From an uncultured delta proteobacterium (GTDB lineage Bacteria > Desulfobacterota > Binatia > Binatales > Binataceae): DNA of 64,000 nucleotides. Shown here one piece after another: positions 36,245 through 47,934 of the stretch (its first letter is position 1; every line of letters begins with the position of its first letter). The position numbers and the translations under genes are program-made. The DNA is taken from contig CAWEEQ010000004.1 of NCBI GenBank assembly GCA_963808235.1, positions 2,272,001 to 2,336,000 of the forward strand, given 5' to 3'. The notes under the pieces are model-generated. The model worked only from the letters and a program-made list of their open reading frames with translations, was not told the origin of the DNA and ran no database searches.

Positions 36245-36273
36245 TTGACGCCTGTCGCGCGACAGGCGATGAT
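36245..36273 (+). promoter_or_regulatory. higBA promoter with 20-bp perfect palindromic operator
   Basis: TTGACG-N17-GATGAT; CGCCTGTCGC|GCGACAGGCG at 36249-36268. Confidence 0.65.
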
Positions 36274-36568
36274 TGTGCTGAATGGGTTAATCCGTTCGAT
36301 TCGGCACAGAGGGTTGAGGCGGCTGTACGAGAGCGGAGACGGTCGGGATCTGCCGGCGGCCCAGGTGGAGAAAATCTCGGACATTTTGCTGGCGATCGAC
36401 GAAGCGGCGCACGCGAAAGAAGTCGGATTGTTCCCAGGCTGGCGGCTGCATCCGTTGAAAGGGAACCTGAAGGGTTTTTGGAGCGTCACTGTGAGCGGAA
36501 ACTGGCGAGTAATCTTCCGGTTTGAGGAGGGTGACGCCTTCGACCTTGATTTTGTTGACTATCATTGA
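36269..36568 (+). CDS. higB: HigB/RelE-family toxin (start uncertain)
   Basis: IRSIRHRGLRRLYE, PGWRLHPLKGNLKGFWSVTVSGNWRVIFRF, DYH. Confidence 0.88.
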   Translation: MIVLNGLIRSIRHRGLRRLYESGDGRDLPAAQVEKISDILLAIDEAAHAKEVGLFPGWRLHPLKGNLKGFWSVTVSGNWRVIFRFEEGDAFDLDFVDYH

Positions 36569-36585
36569 AGGAGTCATTGGAAATT

Positions 36586-36969
36586 ATGGCGATGAAGAGT
36601 CCACCGCACGTCGGCGGTTTAATCCGACGTCAGGTGATCGATCCTCTCGGATTGTCAGTAACCGAAGCCGCGAAGGTCCTCGGGGTCGGGCGGCAGGCGC
36701 TTTCGAGCCTGCTGAACGGGAAGACGGCTCTTACCACCAAGATGGGCTTGCGGGTCGAGAAAGCGTTTGGGCCGAAGATGGAGCACTTGATGCGAATGCA
36801 GCTTGCTTTCGATTTGGCTCAGGCACGTAAAGGGGAGCGCGGAGTGCGCGTAGAGCGCTACGTTGCGAAAAGAGACGCGAATCATCCGGGACGGCGCCGC
36901 AAAAAAGGTGCGCGGCGAATGGAGAGGCCGACCCGGAGTGACCGGGCGGCGCGACGGCTGATACTATGA
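36586..36969 (+). CDS. higA: HigA-family antitoxin (HTH)
   Basis: MKSPPHVG, LGLSVTEAAKVLGVGRQALSSLLNGK, MRMQLAFDL. Confidence 0.9.
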   Translation: MAMKSPPHVGGLIRRQVIDPLGLSVTEAAKVLGVGRQALSSLLNGKTALTTKMGLRVEKAFGPKMEHLMRMQLAFDLAQARKGERGVRVERYVAKRDANHPGRRRKKGARRMERPTRSDRAARRLIL

Positions 36970-41824: not shown

Positions 41825-41944
41825 CTACTTCTTTTGTTCCATCGGGACGCCGCAGCATTTCAACTGACCGGTTCCGGCCTTGGTGACGATGACCTGTGAG
41901 GCGCAATTTCCGCAGATATAAACTTTGCCGAGCTGGTTAGCCAT
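41825..41944 (-). CDS. 39-aa desulforedoxin-like CxxC...CC protein (no tail)
   Basis: MANQLGKVYICGNCASQVIVTKAGTGQLKCCGVPMEQKK; RBS AGGA upstream. Confidence 0.85.
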   Translation of the reverse strand: MANQLGKVYICGNCASQVIVTKAGTGQLKCCGVPMEQKK

Positions 41945-41996
41945 TCTTAAATCCTGTCCTCTGTGTGCATTCTTGCACGAAAGCGTTTGCGAACGA

Positions 41997-42785
41997 TCAC
42001 GCGCCTCTGAATAGTGGTTTGCGCTTTTCCAGGAAAGCGCGCACGCCTTCGGCGCGGTCGGAAGTCGTTTGTAGCAGGGCGTATAGATCCTCCTCAAGTC
42101 TGATGCCCTGCTCCAACGTCATGTCGAAACCCTTCAGCACCGCGTCCTTGACCAGGCGGGTGGCAATTGGCGCGCGGCTCAAGATCGCCTCGGCGACGCG
42201 TCCACCCACTTGAGCCAGCTCGCCTCGACCTTTCGCGAGGTAGGTAACTAGACCGATGCGCATGGCCTCGTCGGCTCCCAGAGCCACTCCCGTGAGCATC
42301 ATTCGCAGCGCATTGCCGGCGCCGGCAAGCCGCGGCAAGCGCTGAGTAGCGCCGAAATGCGGCATCGCGCCGCGCTTCAAATGAGTGATCGCGAATCGGG
42401 CGCTTGAGATTGCGACGCGAATATCGGCCGCCAGGGCGAGTTCCAGGCCTTCGTCGAACGCGTCGCCGTTGATGATTGCGACGGTGGGCTTGGAAAGCAC
42501 GGCGAGCGACTCGACCAAGCGCGCATCCACGCCCGCGTCGAAGCCGACGCAAAAGGCGGCGCCGGCGCCGGTGATCGCGAGCACTCGCGCTTCGGGGTCG
42601 TCTTCGACTTGCTCGATCAGCTCGAGCATCCGCACTGCCATCGCGGGCGTCAGCTGCGCGCGCGCGCCCGCATGGCGAAGCGTCGCGGTGACGCACCGGC
42701 TTGCGAAGACGACTTCAACCGCGCCGCCCGAGGCGGTGGAGCGAGTGCGGCGACCCGAATCTTTTTTCGCGCGGCGGGGCGTCAG
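41997..42785 (-). CDS. Crotonase/enoyl-CoA hydratase family protein (degenerate active site)
   Basis: GLELALAADIR, GATQRLPRL, EGVRAFLEKRKP; frame stays open upstream to a CTG overlapping the ligase stop (ATG alternative at 42641). Confidence 0.85.
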   Translation of the reverse strand: MTPRRAKKDSGRRTRSTASGGAVEVVFASRCVTATLRHAGARAQLTPAMAVRMLELIEQVEDDPEARVLAITGAGAAFCVGFDAGVDARLVESLAVLSKPTVAIINGDAFDEGLELALAADIRVAISSARFAITHLKRGAMPHFGATQRLPRLAGAGNALRMMLTGVALGADEAMRIGLVTYLAKGRGELAQVGGRVAEAILSRAPIATRLVKDAVLKGFDMTLEQGIRLEEDLYALLQTTSDRAEGVRAFLEKRKPLFRGA

Positions 42786-44329
42786 ATGCCTCCGGCCGGT
42801 GCGCGCAGATCCTTGCGCAGGATCTTGCCGAGCGGATTTTTAGGCAGCGCGTCGATGAATTCGATGCTCTCGGGGCGCTTGAAGCTGGCAAGGCGAGATC
42901 GACAGAATTCCGCGAGCTCGGGCTGGCTTAGCTTCTGCCCCTTGCGCGCGACGACGAACGCCTTAACGGTCTGCCCCCACTCGATCGAAGGCACGCCGAT
43001 AACGGCGCATTCGTCGACCGCTGGATGACTCATCAGGACGGTCTCGATTTCCGCGGGCGCGATATTCTCACCGCCGCGGATGATCATGTCGTCCTTGCGT
43101 CCGGCGAAAAACACGTAGCCGTCGTCGTCAAGCCATCCGAGGTCGCCGGTCGCGCGCCATCCGTCGGGCAATCGCGCGTCGTCCTCGCGGCCTGCGTATC
43201 CCTTCATGATGCGCGGGGTGCGGATTATTATTTCGCCGACCTGCCCGTGGGGGAGAAACTTTCCATCTTCGTCCCGCACCTGGATCTCGACGTCGGGCAG
43301 GGGCTTGCCGATCGAATTGAGACGCTTCAGCTTGAGTTCGATTTCCTTGGCCGTGCCTTCAAGGCGATGGTCATCGGGGCCGAGCACGGTCAGCGAGGAC
43401 GTGGTTTCGGTCTGCCCGTACGCGTTCACGAAGCCGACCTTTTTCGGGAAGACTTCGATCGCGCGGCGAATCACCTGCACCGGCATCGCGGCGCCGCCGT
43501 AGGCAAGATTCGTAAGACTCGCGAAGTCGGTCTTCGCAAACGATGGCTCGTCGATAATCTGCTTCATCATGGTGGGCACCACGAAAGCATGGGTGACGCG
43601 TTCGCGCTGGACGAGCTCGAGCCACGCCTTCGCGTCGAACTGCGGCATCACGATAACTTTGCGCCCCGTCCAGATGTTGGTCATGTACGCGGTGGTGCCG
43701 GCGATGTGGTAAAAAGGCACGCACACCAGCGCAACGCCGCGATCGGTGCCGTCGGCCATCTCGACGTTGGCGGTCACGTAGGCCGCGAAATCGCGAAAGC
43801 GCAGCATCACGCCCTTGGGCAGCGAGGTGGTGCCGCTGGTGTACATCAGGATCGAAATATCTTCGTCTTCGACTTCGGCCTCGGAATCGTCGGGCTCGGC
43901 CTTCGCGACGAGATCCGCGAGCCGCACCATCCCTTTCGCGCCGTTGCCCAGCGCGACGATCTTGTCGAGCTTGAGCCGCGGCTGAATCCTGGCGATCAGA
44001 TCGAGATAGCGATCGCCGACAATCAGAACCTTCGCGTCGGCGGTGTTGATCATGTACTCGAGCTCGTTATCTTTCGCGCGATAGTTGAGCGGCAGGAAAG
44101 TCAGGCCAGCCTTGGCGGCGCCGTAGTAGCACTCGATGTAAAGATCGGAATTGGTGTCGAGCACCGCGATGACATCGCGCGGCTTGAGACCGAACTGTTT
44201 GAAGACGGTGCTCAGGCGCGCGACTCGATCGTTCAGCTCAGCATAAGTGAGCCGCGCCGCGCCGAAGACCAGGATCTCCTGCTCGGGCACGATCGACGCA
44301 GGGATCGTTACGAAGTTAACCGTGTTCAC
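42782..44329 (-). CDS. ANL-superfamily acyl-AMP/acyl-CoA ligase
   Basis: YTSGTTSLPKG, VPFYHIAG, AYGQTE, TGD, GRKDDMIIRGGENI, LPKNPLGK. Confidence 0.92.
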   Translation of the reverse strand: MNTVNFVTIPASIVPEQEILVFGAARLTYAELNDRVARLSTVFKQFGLKPRDVIAVLDTNSDLYIECYYGAAKAGLTFLPLNYRAKDNELEYMINTADAKVLIVGDRYLDLIARIQPRLKLDKIVALGNGAKGMVRLADLVAKAEPDDSEAEVEDEDISILMYTSGTTSLPKGVMLRFRDFAAYVTANVEMADGTDRGVALVCVPFYHIAGTTAYMTNIWTGRKVIVMPQFDAKAWLELVQRERVTHAFVVPTMMKQIIDEPSFAKTDFASLTNLAYGGAAMPVQVIRRAIEVFPKKVGFVNAYGQTETTSSLTVLGPDDHRLEGTAKEIELKLKRLNSIGKPLPDVEIQVRDEDGKFLPHGQVGEIIIRTPRIMKGYAGREDDARLPDGWRATGDLGWLDDDGYVFFAGRKDDMIIRGGENIAPAEIETVLMSHPAVDECAVIGVPSIEWGQTVKAFVVARKGQKLSQPELAEFCRSRLASFKRPESIEFIDALPKNPLGKILRKDLRAPAGGI

Positions 44330-45121
44330 TTAGGCGAGATTCCTCCCGGACGCCGGCATTTTCCGAGGCCTGGCCCGGCGGCGATTGTCGCGCGAATTTA
44401 TGTTCTCAAATCGTTTCGCGAGGCGCTGTTCGAGTTCGAGTCCCTCCCGCAGAGGCAGATCGAGCCCTTCCCACACCGCCAGCTTGAGCATCGCGGCCTG
44501 CTCACGGGCGACTCCGCCAAGCTCGCGTGCAATGGTGAGAGCGCGTGCATCCAACTCTGCCAAGGGAACCACTTCGGCGACCAAACCTACAAGTAACGCG
44601 TCTTGGGCGTCAATCCAACGGCCGGTGAGACAGAGATCTAGCGCGCGCCCGAGGCCGAGACGACGCGCGGCGGTCTGAGTGCCGGCGACTCCGGGAATCA
44701 TCCCGGCGCCGGTTTCGGGCAAGGAAATTCGAGTGTCGTCAGCGGCTATCGCAACGTCGCACAGCAGCGCCATCTCGAGTCCTCCGCCGACTGTGTAGCC
44801 GTGGATTGCGGCGACGGTCGGTATCGGCAGCGCTCGCATCATGCCCCAAACGTCGCGGCGAAAGCGCACCCATCGCGCAACGATCGGCGACGGCGCCATC
44901 CCGAATTCCGCGAGATCGCCGCCGGTCGAGAACGCTTTGCCGGCGCCGCGCAGTACCATCGCGCGGACCGTGGAGTCCTCGTGAACCGCGGCGAGGATTT
45001 GAAACAGCTCGTCGCGCATCGCCATGTTGTAGGCGTTGAACTGATCGGGGCGATTGAGCGTGACCCACGCTACCGCGCCGCGCTTGGCGTACAGCACCGC
45101 ACTGGAACCGTTTGAAGACAT
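44330..45121 (-). CDS. Enoyl-CoA hydratase/isomerase family protein
   Basis: TLNRP..FNA, AFSTGGDL, GGGLE, LPETGAGMIPG (both catalytic Glu present). Confidence 0.9.
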   Translation of the reverse strand: MSSNGSSAVLYAKRGAVAWVTLNRPDQFNAYNMAMRDELFQILAAVHEDSTVRAMVLRGAGKAFSTGGDLAEFGMAPSPIVARWVRFRRDVWGMMRALPIPTVAAIHGYTVGGGLEMALLCDVAIAADDTRISLPETGAGMIPGVAGTQTAARRLGLGRALDLCLTGRWIDAQDALLVGLVAEVVPLAELDARALTIARELGGVAREQAAMLKLAVWEGLDLPLREGLELEQRLAKRFENINSRDNRRRARPRKMPASGRNLA

Positions 45122-46680
45122 CAGCCCGAATGCAAGTCTGCGCTGTCGCTGCTCGCGATAGCGGGACGGCCGCGCTCATAAACAACGCGCCCGCCGACGA
45201 TAGTTATATCGACCGCGAGGTTCATCAGGTCGGCGGGCGGGAGCGAAAACGGGTCGCGCGGGAGAACGATCAGGTCGGCGACGCGGCCGGGTTCGATCGA
45301 GCCGGCGGCGACTTGCCCGAGATGCGCGGCGTCAGTCGTGAAGAGCGCGAACGCATCGGTGATCGAAAGCGCCTCGGCGGGCGCAAGCTCGAGGCCCTCG
45401 AGCGTGGTGCGTGATACCGCGGACGCAATCGCGGCAAGCGGCCTGGCAGGCGTAACCGGCGCGTCGGTAGCCCCCGCAAGATGCACTCCCGCGGCTTTGA
45501 GGCTTCGCGCGCGGTAGAGATGTGCGATCAGGCCGCCCTCTTCGGCGTACTTCGCGCCGCGAAAATGAATGAAGCCGGGATTGGTGACGACCCAGGAATT
45601 CATCGCGGCGAGCCGGTCGATATAGTTGGGCGGGATCAGTCCGCCATGCTCGATGCGAAACCGCGGAATCTCGTTTCGGCCGGCGTATCCTGCCTTTGCG
45701 GTTTCAATAGCGGCCAGCGCTTCTTCCAGTTCCTCGACCTCGGTCACATGAAATGCGCAATCGAGTCCGCGCGCCAGCGCGATTCCAACAGGACGCGAAA
45801 GGCCGGCGCGATCGTACTGATAGCCGGGCATGAACTTGACTCCGGCGAGCCTGATTCCCGCGGCGCCCGCGATCTGTTCGCATCGCTCGGCGGTTTCGAG
45901 ATGCTGCCCGCCGATCATCACGCCAACGTGCTGGCAAATTGCGCCCGACTGCGAAAGCTTCGCGAACAGTTCGACCTCGAAGAGACCGTTGCGAGTGGTC
46001 GCGTCGGTGAAGTTCGTCACGCCGGCCGCGGCCAATTCCCGGCTCATGATTCGCGCGCGCGATTCGGACTCCGCCGCGGTCACGGGCGGAAGATGCTGCG
46101 AGAGCCAGGTTTCCATGCCGACAACCAGGCCGGTCAACTTTCCGGCCGCGTCGCGAACCATGTTGGCACCGACGGGCTGCATGAAATCAGGAGCCTCGAG
46201 ACCGAGCAGCGCGATCGCGCGCGAGTTGAGCCACGTCGCGTGTAGCGTCTGATGTTTGAGTCGCAGCGGATTCTTCGGCACCGAATGATCGAGCTCGGCG
46301 CGCGTCAGCCCGCGCTTGTCGAGCATCAGCGCCTCATCGCATCCGAACGCGCGCAGCCAGTTTCCCGGCGGAGTCTTGCCGGCGGCGATTCGCAAATCGG
46401 CAAGCACGTCGCCAACCGCGCGGCATCGCTGCACAGAAATTCCCGTCGCGGCCGCAGCCGCTTCCAGAAAATGCAGATGCGAATCGATGAAGCCCGGCGC
46501 AACGGCGCGGCCCCCGAGTTTCAGCAGATGAGTTTGCGGTCCGACCAGCGGTTTTATTTCCGCGAATCTGCCCTGCGCGATGATTTGTCCGGCCGCGATT
46601 GCAATCGAGTCGACCCCCGGATGCCCGAGGACAAGACCTTCGTGCACAACCAGGTCGGCTTTCCCGGGGGCGGCGTCCAC
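45121..46680 (-). CDS. YtcJ-like amidohydrolase (amidohydrolase 3)
   Basis: PGFIDSHLH, AFH, RIEHG, ATDAP, GSIEPGRVADLIVL, TIVGGRVVY. Confidence 0.88.
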   Translation of the reverse strand: MDAAPGKADLVVHEGLVLGHPGVDSIAIAAGQIIAQGRFAEIKPLVGPQTHLLKLGGRAVAPGFIDSHLHFLEAAAAATGISVQRCRAVGDVLADLRIAAGKTPPGNWLRAFGCDEALMLDKRGLTRAELDHSVPKNPLRLKHQTLHATWLNSRAIALLGLEAPDFMQPVGANMVRDAAGKLTGLVVGMETWLSQHLPPVTAAESESRARIMSRELAAAGVTNFTDATTRNGLFEVELFAKLSQSGAICQHVGVMIGGQHLETAERCEQIAGAAGIRLAGVKFMPGYQYDRAGLSRPVGIALARGLDCAFHVTEVEELEEALAAIETAKAGYAGRNEIPRFRIEHGGLIPPNYIDRLAAMNSWVVTNPGFIHFRGAKYAEEGGLIAHLYRARSLKAAGVHLAGATDAPVTPARPLAAIASAVSRTTLEGLELAPAEALSITDAFALFTTDAAHLGQVAAGSIEPGRVADLIVLPRDPFSLPPADLMNLAVDITIVGGRVVYERGRPAIASSDSADLHSG

Positions 46681-46734
46681 GTCGAATCGTTCACCTTCAC
46701 CGCCTGCGCCGATGCGCGGCAGCGTTTCGATTTC

Positions 46735-46878
46735 CTAGTCGGAAGACGGAAGCGGCTTCGCTTCCTTGATTTTCATTTCGTTATCGCAACACTGCAGACC
46801 GCCGGGGCCGGCCTTGTTGCAGAGCACTTCGGTGCCGCATTTTTCGCACATGTAACGCTTGCCGAGTACGTTTGCCAT
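46735..46878 (-). CDS. 47-aa desulforedoxin-like CxxC...CC protein with C-terminal KEAKPLPSSD tail (not in ORF track)
   Basis: Hand translation MANVLGKRYMCEKCGTEVLCNKAGPGGLQCCDNEMKIKEAKPLPSSD*; RBS AGGAG upstream; paralogous to 41825-41944. Confidence 0.88.
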   Translation of the reverse strand: MANVLGKRYMCEKCGTEVLCNKAGPGGLQCCDNEMKIKEAKPLPSSD

Positions 46879-46935
46879 CTGGTCCGCTCCTGAAATCAGG
46901 CGATAAGCGCCTTTTGAGTAACTTAAAGTATCACT

Positions 46936-47934
46936 TCAATCTTGGCTGAACGGCAAATCGGTCACGATCGCGCTGCCGTCCGCATCGACTTTCAATTCGG
47001 TTCCCGGCCGCCAGGCGCTGTGATGCAAAATTGCGAGTCCGATCGCACCCAATCGCGGCGAGCGAGTCGCGCTGCTCACCCGCCCGACTTCCTTGCCTTC
47101 GAGACTCAAGCCCGCGCCAAGCCTCCGCGATTCTTTAAACTTGAGTCCGAACATCCGTTTTTTCAAGCCGCCGCGCGCAGTCGCCCGCTCGATAGTTTCC
47201 TGCCCGAGGTAGCATCCCTTGTTCAGCGAGATCGCGCGATCGAGCCGCGCCTCGAGCGCGATCGTTTTGTCGAAGGTGTCGACGCCGACGCGCGCGACTC
47301 CATTCTCGATTCGTATCGCTTCGAGCACTGCGGAATCGATTCTGCGCGAATTCGGTATCGAGGTCAGAAGTTTGCCGACAATCGTGTCTACCTGCGCGCG
47401 CGGGGCAATAATCGATGCTGCAGGCGCGCCGAAGCGCGGCAGGTTCGCGACTCGAAGATCGCCGGTGAGCACCGCGCGCCACGCGGCAAGCGAACCCGCA
47501 TCGTCGCCACCCACGATGCGCGCCGCGTCATGCGCCTTTGGACCTTCGACATCGATAACCGACAAGTCCGGGCCGTCTTCGAATTCGACATCATCGGCAA
47601 CCAGCAGGCGCTCGAGATGCGCCCGCGCGCGCGCCCACGCGTCGGCGTCGATATCCAGAATGAGCGCGTCGTCGGTTACCCAGACGAACAAGTCGGCGAT
47701 CACGTGCGCGTGCTCGGTCAGAAACAGCGCCGGCAGGACCGAACCGGGCTTGGCGCCCTTGATATCCGCACTGGACGTGCCGTGAAAGAACGACACGCGA
47801 TCGTCGCCGACCACGCGCACCACCGTTCGGCCGTCGAGTATGCGAACGCCCACCGCCTTGATGACCGCATCGTAATCAGCGTCGAAGGCGGCCGCAGCGG
47901 AGCCGCGCTCGGGTGTCATTTCAAGATGGCCCAT
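46936..47934 (-). CDS. ygfZ: YgfZ/GcvT-like folate-binding Fe-S maintenance protein
   Basis: Signature KGCYLGQE; GDDRVSFFHG; GKEVGRVSS. Confidence 0.85.
   Translation of the reverse strand: MGHLEMTPERGSAAAAFDADYDAVIKAVGVRILDGRTVVRVVGDDRVSFFHGTSSADIKGAKPGSVLPALFLTEHAHVIADLFVWVTDDALILDIDADAWARARAHLERLLVADDVEFEDGPDLSVIDVEGPKAHDAARIVGGDDAGSLAAWRAVLTGDLRVANLPRFGAPAASIIAPRAQVDTIVGKLLTSIPNSRRIDSAVLEAIRIENGVARVGVDTFDKTIALEARLDRAISLNKGCYLGQETIERATARGGLKKRMFGLKFKESRRLGAGLSLEGKEVGRVSSATRSPRLGAIGLAILHHSAWRPGTELKVDADGSAIVTDLPFSQD

Follow-up and report, generated by a model that had tools for sequence, protein, structure and literature searches.

Among the described small metal-binding proteins, the closest counterparts of the system considered here are desulforedoxin (PDB 1cfw/1dxg; 12 chains from 6 entries in the PDB listing) and the N-terminal domain of desulfoferrodoxin (PF06397). 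The system is an operon of an uncultured bacterium of the class Binatia (the host class), located in a 64,000-nucleotide (nt) stretch of contig CAWEEQ010000004.1 (hereafter, the window), in which the genes for an ANL ligase, two crotonases and an amidohydrolase are bracketed by genes for two mini-proteins of 47 and 39 amino acids (aa), denoted Dx1 and Dx2. The mini-proteins share with desulforedoxin and the PF06397 domain the CxxC-x15-CC arrangement of cysteines, the fold and the presence of two copies per unit. Unlike desulforedoxin, the window pair consists of unequal halves, one of which carries a 10-residue tail ending in aspartate, has metal ligands that are dispensable, and is linked to enzymes of coenzyme A (CoA) metabolism. 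Unlike desulfoferrodoxin, it has no superoxide reductase domain: the scores against TIGR00320 are 22.8 and 25.2 bits, compared with a cut-off of 146.9, and the open reading frames (ORFs) stop at 47 and 39 aa.

Two other groups of small proteins invite comparison. Like the pair described here, the LysW/ArgW carriers combine a small metal domain of the cysteine type with a final acidic residue that never varies and with an adjacent ligase; in PMC10433800, the LysW/AmCP carriers are characterized by a C-terminal EDWGE motif and an ATP-grasp ligase, LysX/ArgX. In contrast, the tail of Dx1 reads P-[SA]-S-D, the fold is of the desulforedoxin type, the ligase is an ANL enzyme, the other partners are crotonases or a CoA-transferase, and the window module lacks an obligatory releasing hydrolase. 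There is no ATP-grasp gene among the six genes of the operon, to which the search for LysX was confined. The MbtH-like proteins, which PMC10510592 describes as about 70 aa long with three conserved tryptophans, are likewise small and genetically tied to an adenylate-forming enzyme, but the mini-proteins, at 47 and 39 aa, contain no tryptophan, have a different fold, accompany a stand-alone CoA ligase and persist where that ligase is not found; a search for MbtH matches to Dx1 and Dx2 returned none at E 0.1. Judging by their sequences, the mini-proteins are members of neither the LysW/AmCP nor the MbtH family, and they are probably carriers or docking partners of a new type that take part in a CoA pathway.

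Two mini-proteins and the operon between them

Dx1 and Dx2 align without gaps, with 19 identities over 39 positions (49%; E 4e-12), which upholds the paralogy proposed in an earlier, sequence-only reading of the window; the CxxC-x16-CC spacing given there for Dx1 has to be corrected to x15, the same as in Dx2. Dx2 matches PF06397 at 31 bits (cut-off 23) and Dx1, at 20.5 bits (E 4e-4), comes slightly below the cut-off, a desulforedoxin-type affiliation that the sequence-only reading had left unnamed; there are TIGR00319 matches as well, and all four metal ligands are present in the window copies. A profile search of 1.84 billion representative sequences yielded 1,170 matches at E 0.001, of which the best 150 were examined, and in many of these a tail-less repeat is fused to a tailed repeat that follows it. 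The same order is found in separate genes: when genomes were scanned for the mini-protein and the best 80 of 482 relatives (mostly Dehalococcoidia, with some Desulfobacterota) were inspected, the tail-less gene lay immediately 5' of the tailed gene in 75 of the 80 loci. Fused two-repeat forms next to the ligase in Actinobacteria, which the sequence-only reading had mentioned, do exist, in plasmid records.

Structure prediction points in the same direction. The AlphaFold2 model of a nearly cysteine-free fused relative, as opposed to the window proteins themselves, is all-beta (predicted local distance difference test score 93.9), and its top match among 48,161 chains is desulforedoxin 1cfw, with a root-mean-square deviation of 1.2 Å over 36 of 36 residues and a Z score of only 3.6 because the domain is tiny; a Foldseek comparison with the PDB gave no match at E 0.001. 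Dx1 and Dx2 are separately encoded halves of a single two-repeat protein, which many other bacteria possess as a fusion. Given that desulforedoxin is a homodimer, the two proteins most likely form a heterodimer equivalent to the desulforedoxin dimer, and the earlier suggestion that the tail-less copy is a structural partner is backed by both the fusions and the tandem pairs. Longer fusions were sought among 10 candidates and none was found, which is weak evidence; the protein atlas yielded hypothetical clusters only, and four cysteine-poor fused proteins are without an NCBIfam model. In a separate group of fusions (P0187, P0188, P0199, P0206, P0208, P0213, P0223, P0235, P0247, P0250 and P0251), the place of the tail-less repeat is taken by an N-terminal domain of 55-70 aa that is unrelated to it and probably helical, and the tailed repeat comes after this domain.

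The operon occupies positions 41825-46878 of the minus strand and consists of six co-oriented genes that are as tightly packed as had been claimed, the four enzyme genes abutting or overlapping one another. In the direction of transcription, its features are:

46887..46891, minus strand: sequence AGGAG resembling a ribosome-binding site, 8 nt 5' of the Dx1 ATG
46735..46878, minus strand: Dx1, 47-aa tailed mini-protein of the desulforedoxin fold; metal site C11, C14, C30, C31; additional C20; terminal D47
46738..46767, minus strand: tail of Dx1, residues 38-47, with P-S-S-D running up to the stop codon
45121..46680, minus strand: amidohydrolase (Amidohydro_3), recurrent but optional; ligands H68, H70, H311, H345 and D406 retained
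44330..45121, minus strand: ECH1, crotonase of the catalytic type; E116, E136 and oxyanion loop retained; family-specific EFG..P loop and R86/R89; last crotonase helix lacking
42782..44329, minus strand: ANL ligase from the clade that accompanies the mini-protein; W451, F483 and R485 (CoA-binding), tunnel G420 and catalytic K502 retained
41997..42785, minus strand: ECH2, degenerate crotonase that has lost the second Glu and the oxyanion loop but conserves the C-terminal helix; CTG start inferred
41952..41961, minus strand: sequence GAGGA/AGGA resembling a ribosome-binding site, ahead of Dx2
41825..41944, minus strand: Dx2, 39-aa tail-less mini-protein of the desulforedoxin fold, matching the first repeat of the fused form

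The purine-rich stretches that resemble ribosome-binding sites are located 7-8 nt 5' of both mini-protein start codons, in agreement with the earlier notion that each of the two genes has its own. ECH2 probably starts at the CTG at 42785, which overlaps the ligase stop codon and yields a protein of 262 aa, rather than at the first ATG (42641; 214 aa): the reading frame and the first residues from this CTG are retained in relatives. Among the 18,193 Met-started ORFs of 30-60 aa in the genome, the CxxC-x15-CC motif appears in only two, Dx1 and Dx2, and both copies are present in 33 of the 41 relatives searched, with three more encoding a single fused copy; hence the pair does not consist of chance ORFs.

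The tail and the metal site

As the sequence-only reading had it, Dx1 has the tail and Dx2 does not. In the fetched loci, x-P-[SA]-S-D stands at the stop codon in all 121 distinct tailed copies, a count that is biased because these loci were gathered by similarity, and in 120 of the 121 the tail ends 42 residues from GKRY. The supposition that the tail is terminal and conserved is thus borne out, and 123 of the 150 distant representatives (the best 150 of 1,170) also end in Asp. Only G6 and D47 are invariant in 34 distant single copies; in 45 fused proteins, the invariant residues are a G, an R and the terminal D. The metal site behaves differently: the ligands are reduced to one or none in 26 of 122 tailed copies, including some from host-class genomes whose ligases are 58-60% identical to the window ligase. 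Because Asp and its spacing stay fixed while the ligands are lost, this pattern of conservation indicates that selection acts on the tail, not on the metal.

These observations bear on the reading under which the mini-proteins would be iron electron carriers of the desulforedoxin type, or metal sensors, that ended up in the operon by chance. Such a role would be in line with the PF06397 and TIGR00319 matches and with the four ligands of the window copies. However, the loss of ligands extends to close host-class relatives, the core module includes no redox enzyme, and the natural cysteine-poor variants already largely refute this reading, which we regard as extremely unlikely.

The same comparisons address the proposal that the tail replaces CoA as the acyl acceptor, with the acyl group carried on a tail serine, as an anhydride of the Asp, or on a free cysteine near the hairpin. 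All 121 representatives scored have a Ser or Thr at position -2 or -3, a free cysteine occurs at 20 or, in 8 fused copies, at 26, and the residues that contact the CoA nucleotide are lost in the fused-clade ligases, all of which would suit an acceptor of this kind. Nevertheless, no Ser or Cys position is invariant, and the window ligase retains its CoA-binding residues. Furthermore, oxygen esters are poor crotonase substrates, so we consider this proposal very improbable. C20 in particular is common but dispensable, given that C20 and C26 are both missing from 29 of 111 representatives, and for this reason we reject it as an obligatory acyl-accepting thiol. The copies with the free cysteine at 26 instead of 20 are eight fused, metal-free ones from the host class (L030, L031, L162-L167), and P0243 shows the same arrangement; the shift is probably across one and the same hairpin.

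Ligase, crotonases and CoA-transferase

Counts of carriers and ligases given here include kin, and the rows are not independent. In profile searches of 151 host-class genomes, the mini-protein was detected in 112, the ligase in 112, both in 108 and neither in 35. In the four genomes with the mini-protein only, the ligase directly adjoins the pair and is cut by a contig end, so that the ligase accompanies the mini-protein in all 112 carriers (108 by score and 4 by adjacency); the four genomes with the ligase only have weak matches, which belong to a sister clade that does not occur with the mini-protein. All 68 carrier ligases in the tree group in a single clade (FastTree, support 100). Among plasmids, the 19 records that encode the fused protein are exactly the 19 that encode a ligase of at least 47.9% identity, the next match being below 39%; by coordinates, the two genes are adjacent on 16 of these, 15-28 kb apart on two, and without clear placement on one. 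On all six plasmids that were opened, the ligase adjoins the fused protein, and the other neighbors are ordinary acyl-CoA catabolic genes; the plasmid co-occurrence alone overstates the link because large catabolic regions are common to these plasmids. In 9 of 9 complete operons of the fused clade, the ligase adjoins the mini-protein. The predicted genomic linkage to this ligase subfamily is therefore found in all 112 host-class carriers and on 19 of 19 plasmids, and neither a variable or non-terminal tail nor a missing link to the ligase, the sequence-level outcomes that the sequence-only reading had listed as counting against its proposal, was encountered.

The window ligase scores above the NF004837 cut-off and possesses the core ANL features (P-loop, A4 His, A8 Gly and A10 Lys), as do 4-chlorobenzoate:CoA ligase and the FadD-type acyl-CoA ligases, but it belongs to a distinct clade marked by particular invariant residues (Y184, R223, W236, P295, N302 and R418); the best matches in the PDB (E about 1e-82) include no close member. 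Its residues W451, F483 and R485 align with W440, F473 and R475 of 4-chlorobenzoate:CoA ligase, which bind CoA according to PMC10455477. In the 51 rows of the subclade that includes the window ligase, W is present in 50, F or Y in 51, and K or R in 51 at these positions. By these residues, the window ligase resembles a genuine CoA ligase. When a clade ligase that is 59% identical to the window ligase was co-folded with the fused mini-protein of the same genome, the runs fell on both sides of the mark of 0.32 (0.64, 0.11 and 0.20), and they are given no weight here.

The crotonases, too, belong to the core module, which comprises the mini-protein pair, one ligase clade and a pair of catalytic and degenerate crotonases. 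Like the two-glutamate enoyl-CoA hydratases (5zai, EchA8), ECH1 has both catalytic glutamates and the oxyanion loop, with E116, E136 and G67-x-D69 invariant in 18 of 18 aligned rows. Unlike these hydratases, the catalytic and degenerate subunits are separate and show complementary losses: ECH1 stops short of the last crotonase helix, which ECH2 conserves, whereas in ECH2 the second Glu and the AGAD loop are unconserved among 23 rows, so that it falls short of the two glutamates and oxyanion loop of the family. Moreover, in the fused clade, the two are replaced by one circularly permuted protein, in which a segment similar to the ECH2 helix (hhalign probability 63%, E 7e-5, 44 columns) precedes the ECH1 core (E 8e-51). 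This permuted crotonase follows the mini-protein and the ligase in 9 of 9 complete fused-clade operons and is encoded on 17 plasmid records, every one of them among the 19 with the fused protein. We infer that ECH1 and ECH2 form a heteromer. In the host class, the ECH1 profile matches 96 genomes at E 1e-79 or better, all of them carriers, with three weaker matches in non-carriers; of the 16 carriers without an ECH1 match, 14 belong to the fused clade, and in the remaining two no orthologue was found. With ECH1 itself as the query, plasmids gave 823 crotonases of generic type, a result too unspecific to be informative. A further difference from the known hydratases is an arginine-rich helix after the oxyanion loop of ECH1: all 18 aligned ECH1 rows have both R86 and R89, the two recur in the permuted proteins (R86 in 10 of 10, R89 in 9 of 10), and no equivalents were seen in the solved hydratases. 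The helix presumably lines the acyl pocket, a location that suggests a substrate with a second carboxylate.

The fourth enzyme of the window operon is dispensable. The sequence-only reading assigned to the amidohydrolase the release of the tethered product; this enzyme is, however, absent from 6 of the 18 main-clade operons examined and from all 9 complete fused-clade operons, and it is found near the pair in 9 of the 80 loci inspected among the 482 relatives. Being optional, it lends no support to a release step, and we reject it as an obligatory release enzyme.

The link between mini-protein and ligase is looser in Dehalococcoidia than in the host class. Of the 121 Dehalococcoidia genomes, 100 have a mini-protein match, 83 a ligase match, and 80 both (81 when the fused copy in G224 is counted). 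The 20 genomes with the mini-protein only comprise 13 with strong matches and 7 with weak ones that may be true desulfoferrodoxins; in the 13, a class I CoA-transferase was found in six, a broken or split ligase in two, and neither in five. In 12 related genomes (G072, G073, G220, G283, G330-333, G335 and G337-339), no ligase of the clade was found (best E 1e-137 or weaker, compared with 1e-200 or stronger for the clade). The pair is present there with its tail intact, and ECH1 was found in 10 of them. In 11 of the 12, a class I 3-oxoacid CoA-transferase pair with the Glu motif retained lies directly 5' of the mini-protein genes, in the position that the ligase occupies in relatives; in the twelfth, it is on a separate contig. 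In G283, the entire cluster, without the ligase, is contained in a single 325-kb contig. The opposite trend is seen in G216, a 5.6-Mb Dehalococcoidia assembly (L182-L190; binning contamination is possible) with seven pairs, eight ligase matches and a single ECH1, where at least 5 cassettes of ligase and pair contain ligases that are 70-96% identical and differ slightly in their pocket residues. Thus, the pair multiplies with the ligase in one genome, yet persists in another lineage in which the ligase was not found.

These findings are most directly relevant to the possibility that the mini-proteins serve solely this ligase clade, as an MbtH-like activator or stabilizer. In its favor, the mini-protein and ligase genes are direct neighbors on 16 of 19 plasmids, in 9 of 9 complete fused-clade operons and in the G216 cassettes, and the ligases form one clade. 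But the apparent loss of the ligase with retention of the tailed pair in the 12 genomes speaks against a pure activator; the pair is also present in further Dehalococcoidia genomes in which neither the ligase nor the CoA-transferase was found; in the SAR202-type genomes it lies far from the ligase; and the mini-proteins show no MbtH sequence features. Furthermore, association with two unrelated folds that both form CoA thioesters is easier to explain by a shared substrate than by a shared activator. On balance, an activating role of this kind appears improbable.

Several neighborhoods deserve mention in their own right. In the SAR202-type genomes (about 35 of the 80 loci, L040-L119), an orphan tandem pair is located just downstream of an MTHFR-like gene, apart from the ECH2-ECH1-ligase operon. 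In loci of anaerobic Dehalococcoidia (L071, L080, L083, L085, L098, L114, L116, L208 and L210), the gene 3' of the pair encodes a class III CoA-transferase with two domains and about 760 aa, and the amidohydrolase often comes next. In the window, a ygfZ-like gene (46936-47934, minus strand; TIGR03317 above cut-off) lies directly upstream of Dx1 in the same orientation, as it does in all 17 main-clade operons with Dx1, whereas the fused clade and Chloroflexota do not have it there; it is probably a stable neighbor and is possibly co-transcribed, but we reject it as a member of the module, which it flanks only within the host class. A promoter scan gave one weak site 5' of the ygfZ-like gene, at chance level, and no RNA holder is listed for the stretch. 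Downstream of Dx2, separated by 31 bp, there is a gene for a transglycosylase-associated small membrane protein (PF04226; 41554-41793, minus strand) that is shared with close relatives only. Farther away, an ORF pair at 36245-36969 (plus strand) was recognized by eye as a putative toxin-antitoxin module of the HigB/HigA type.

A possible carrier or docking partner

How could an invariant C-terminal aspartate be connected to CoA enzymes? Under the scenario that we tentatively put forward, although its covalent chemistry is conjectural, the terminal Asp would itself be the acid, activated as a CoA thioester and then supplied to the two crotonases. Dx2 and Dx1 would fold as a desulforedoxin-like pseudo-dimer in which the metal, where present, is structural; this dimer would be a dedicated protein carrier or substrate, with the fixed-length tail presenting the C-terminus of Asp47. 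The carboxyl group of Asp47 would be adenylated by the ligase and converted to the CoA thioester or, in the lineage without the ligase, a CoA-transferase would make the thioester directly. The ECH1/ECH2 heteromer, with ECH1 being catalytic and ECH2 supplying the missing helix, would then act on the thioester, while R86 and R89 hold the second carboxylate of the Asp. This scenario appears to be the simplest account of the invariant Asp, its fixed reach, the ECH1 arginines and the adjacency to enzymes that form CoA thioesters. Stated in full, namely as a single-copy pathway of Binatia, SAR202 and other Dehalococcoidia, Desulfobacterota, Actinobacteria and sphingomonads, in which the C-terminal aspartate of a carrier derived from a desulforedoxin dimer is turned into an aspartyl-CoA thioester by a dedicated ANL ligase or by a CoA-transferase, after which a heteromeric crotonase degrades or modifies it, the proposal, which would amount to a new class of protein carrier, is rather doubtful. 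The crotonase step could be, to give just one example, an elimination that yields fumaryl-CoA and a C-terminally amidated protein.

The alternative that fits almost as well, and that we consider possible, is a non-covalent docking subunit or adaptor, whose tail carboxylate would dock to the arginine helix of ECH1, to the ligase or to both, thereby tying the activating enzyme to ECH1/ECH2; the real substrate would be some small acid, either polar or dicarboxylic, and the optional amidohydrolase may free it from an amide. The linkage data are identical for the adaptor and for the Asp thioester. Invariant C-terminal residues at a fixed distance are typical of docking tails, such as the C-terminus of the single-stranded DNA-binding protein SSB and the HbYX motifs of the proteasome, and the multiplied ligase and pair cassettes of G216, the ordinary acyl-CoA catabolic genes around the module on six plasmids and the retention of both hydratase glutamates in ECH1 are also compatible with an adaptor. 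Conversely, the adaptor would have to serve two unrelated activating enzymes, unless the gene adjacency is incidental, and neither Glu nor Asn replaces the Asp in the main family.

Several observations weigh against the Asp thioester. In its pocket, the ligase resembles ordinary acyl-CoA ligases, and the peptide end would have to enter this pocket with the CoA tunnel left free. In the 16 rows of fused-subclade ligases, F483 and R485 are replaced, which makes the use of CoA in this clade less certain. The 12 ligase-less genomes represent a single lineage with incomplete assemblies, and in relatives (L071, L080, L217) the CoA-transferase stands beside the ligase, so it may be an independent member of the cluster. 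The G216 cassettes suit a stoichiometric ligase partner for several small acids. Finally, 27 of the 150 representatives do not end in Asp, and 9 of these are two-repeat forms with different ends; apart from those and one form with reversed repeats, the other ends look like the products of read-through or breakage. The two-repeat forms that end in -AAF, -xSE or -PxVG or have the reversed order (P0140, P0178, P0200, P0202, P0203, P0246, P0170, P0184, P0264 and P0129) are possibly a sister family with a different partner.

No description of a mini-protein/ligase/crotonase system was found in the full-text literature searched, which lay mostly outside the subscription journals. The module is usually present in a single copy, in 112 of the 151 host-class genomes and in most of the Dehalococcoidia sampled, including the abundant SAR202, as well as on catabolic plasmids of culturable Rhodococcus and Sphingobium, whereas the fused small protein has no family model and is annotated as hypothetical. 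If the covalent scenario with the C-terminal Asp is correct, an ANL ligase and a crotonase would here act on a carrier protein, and no such combination was met in the literature searched. If the pair is a docking partner only, it would explain why this ligase clade and the split crotonase may be inactive when expressed alone.

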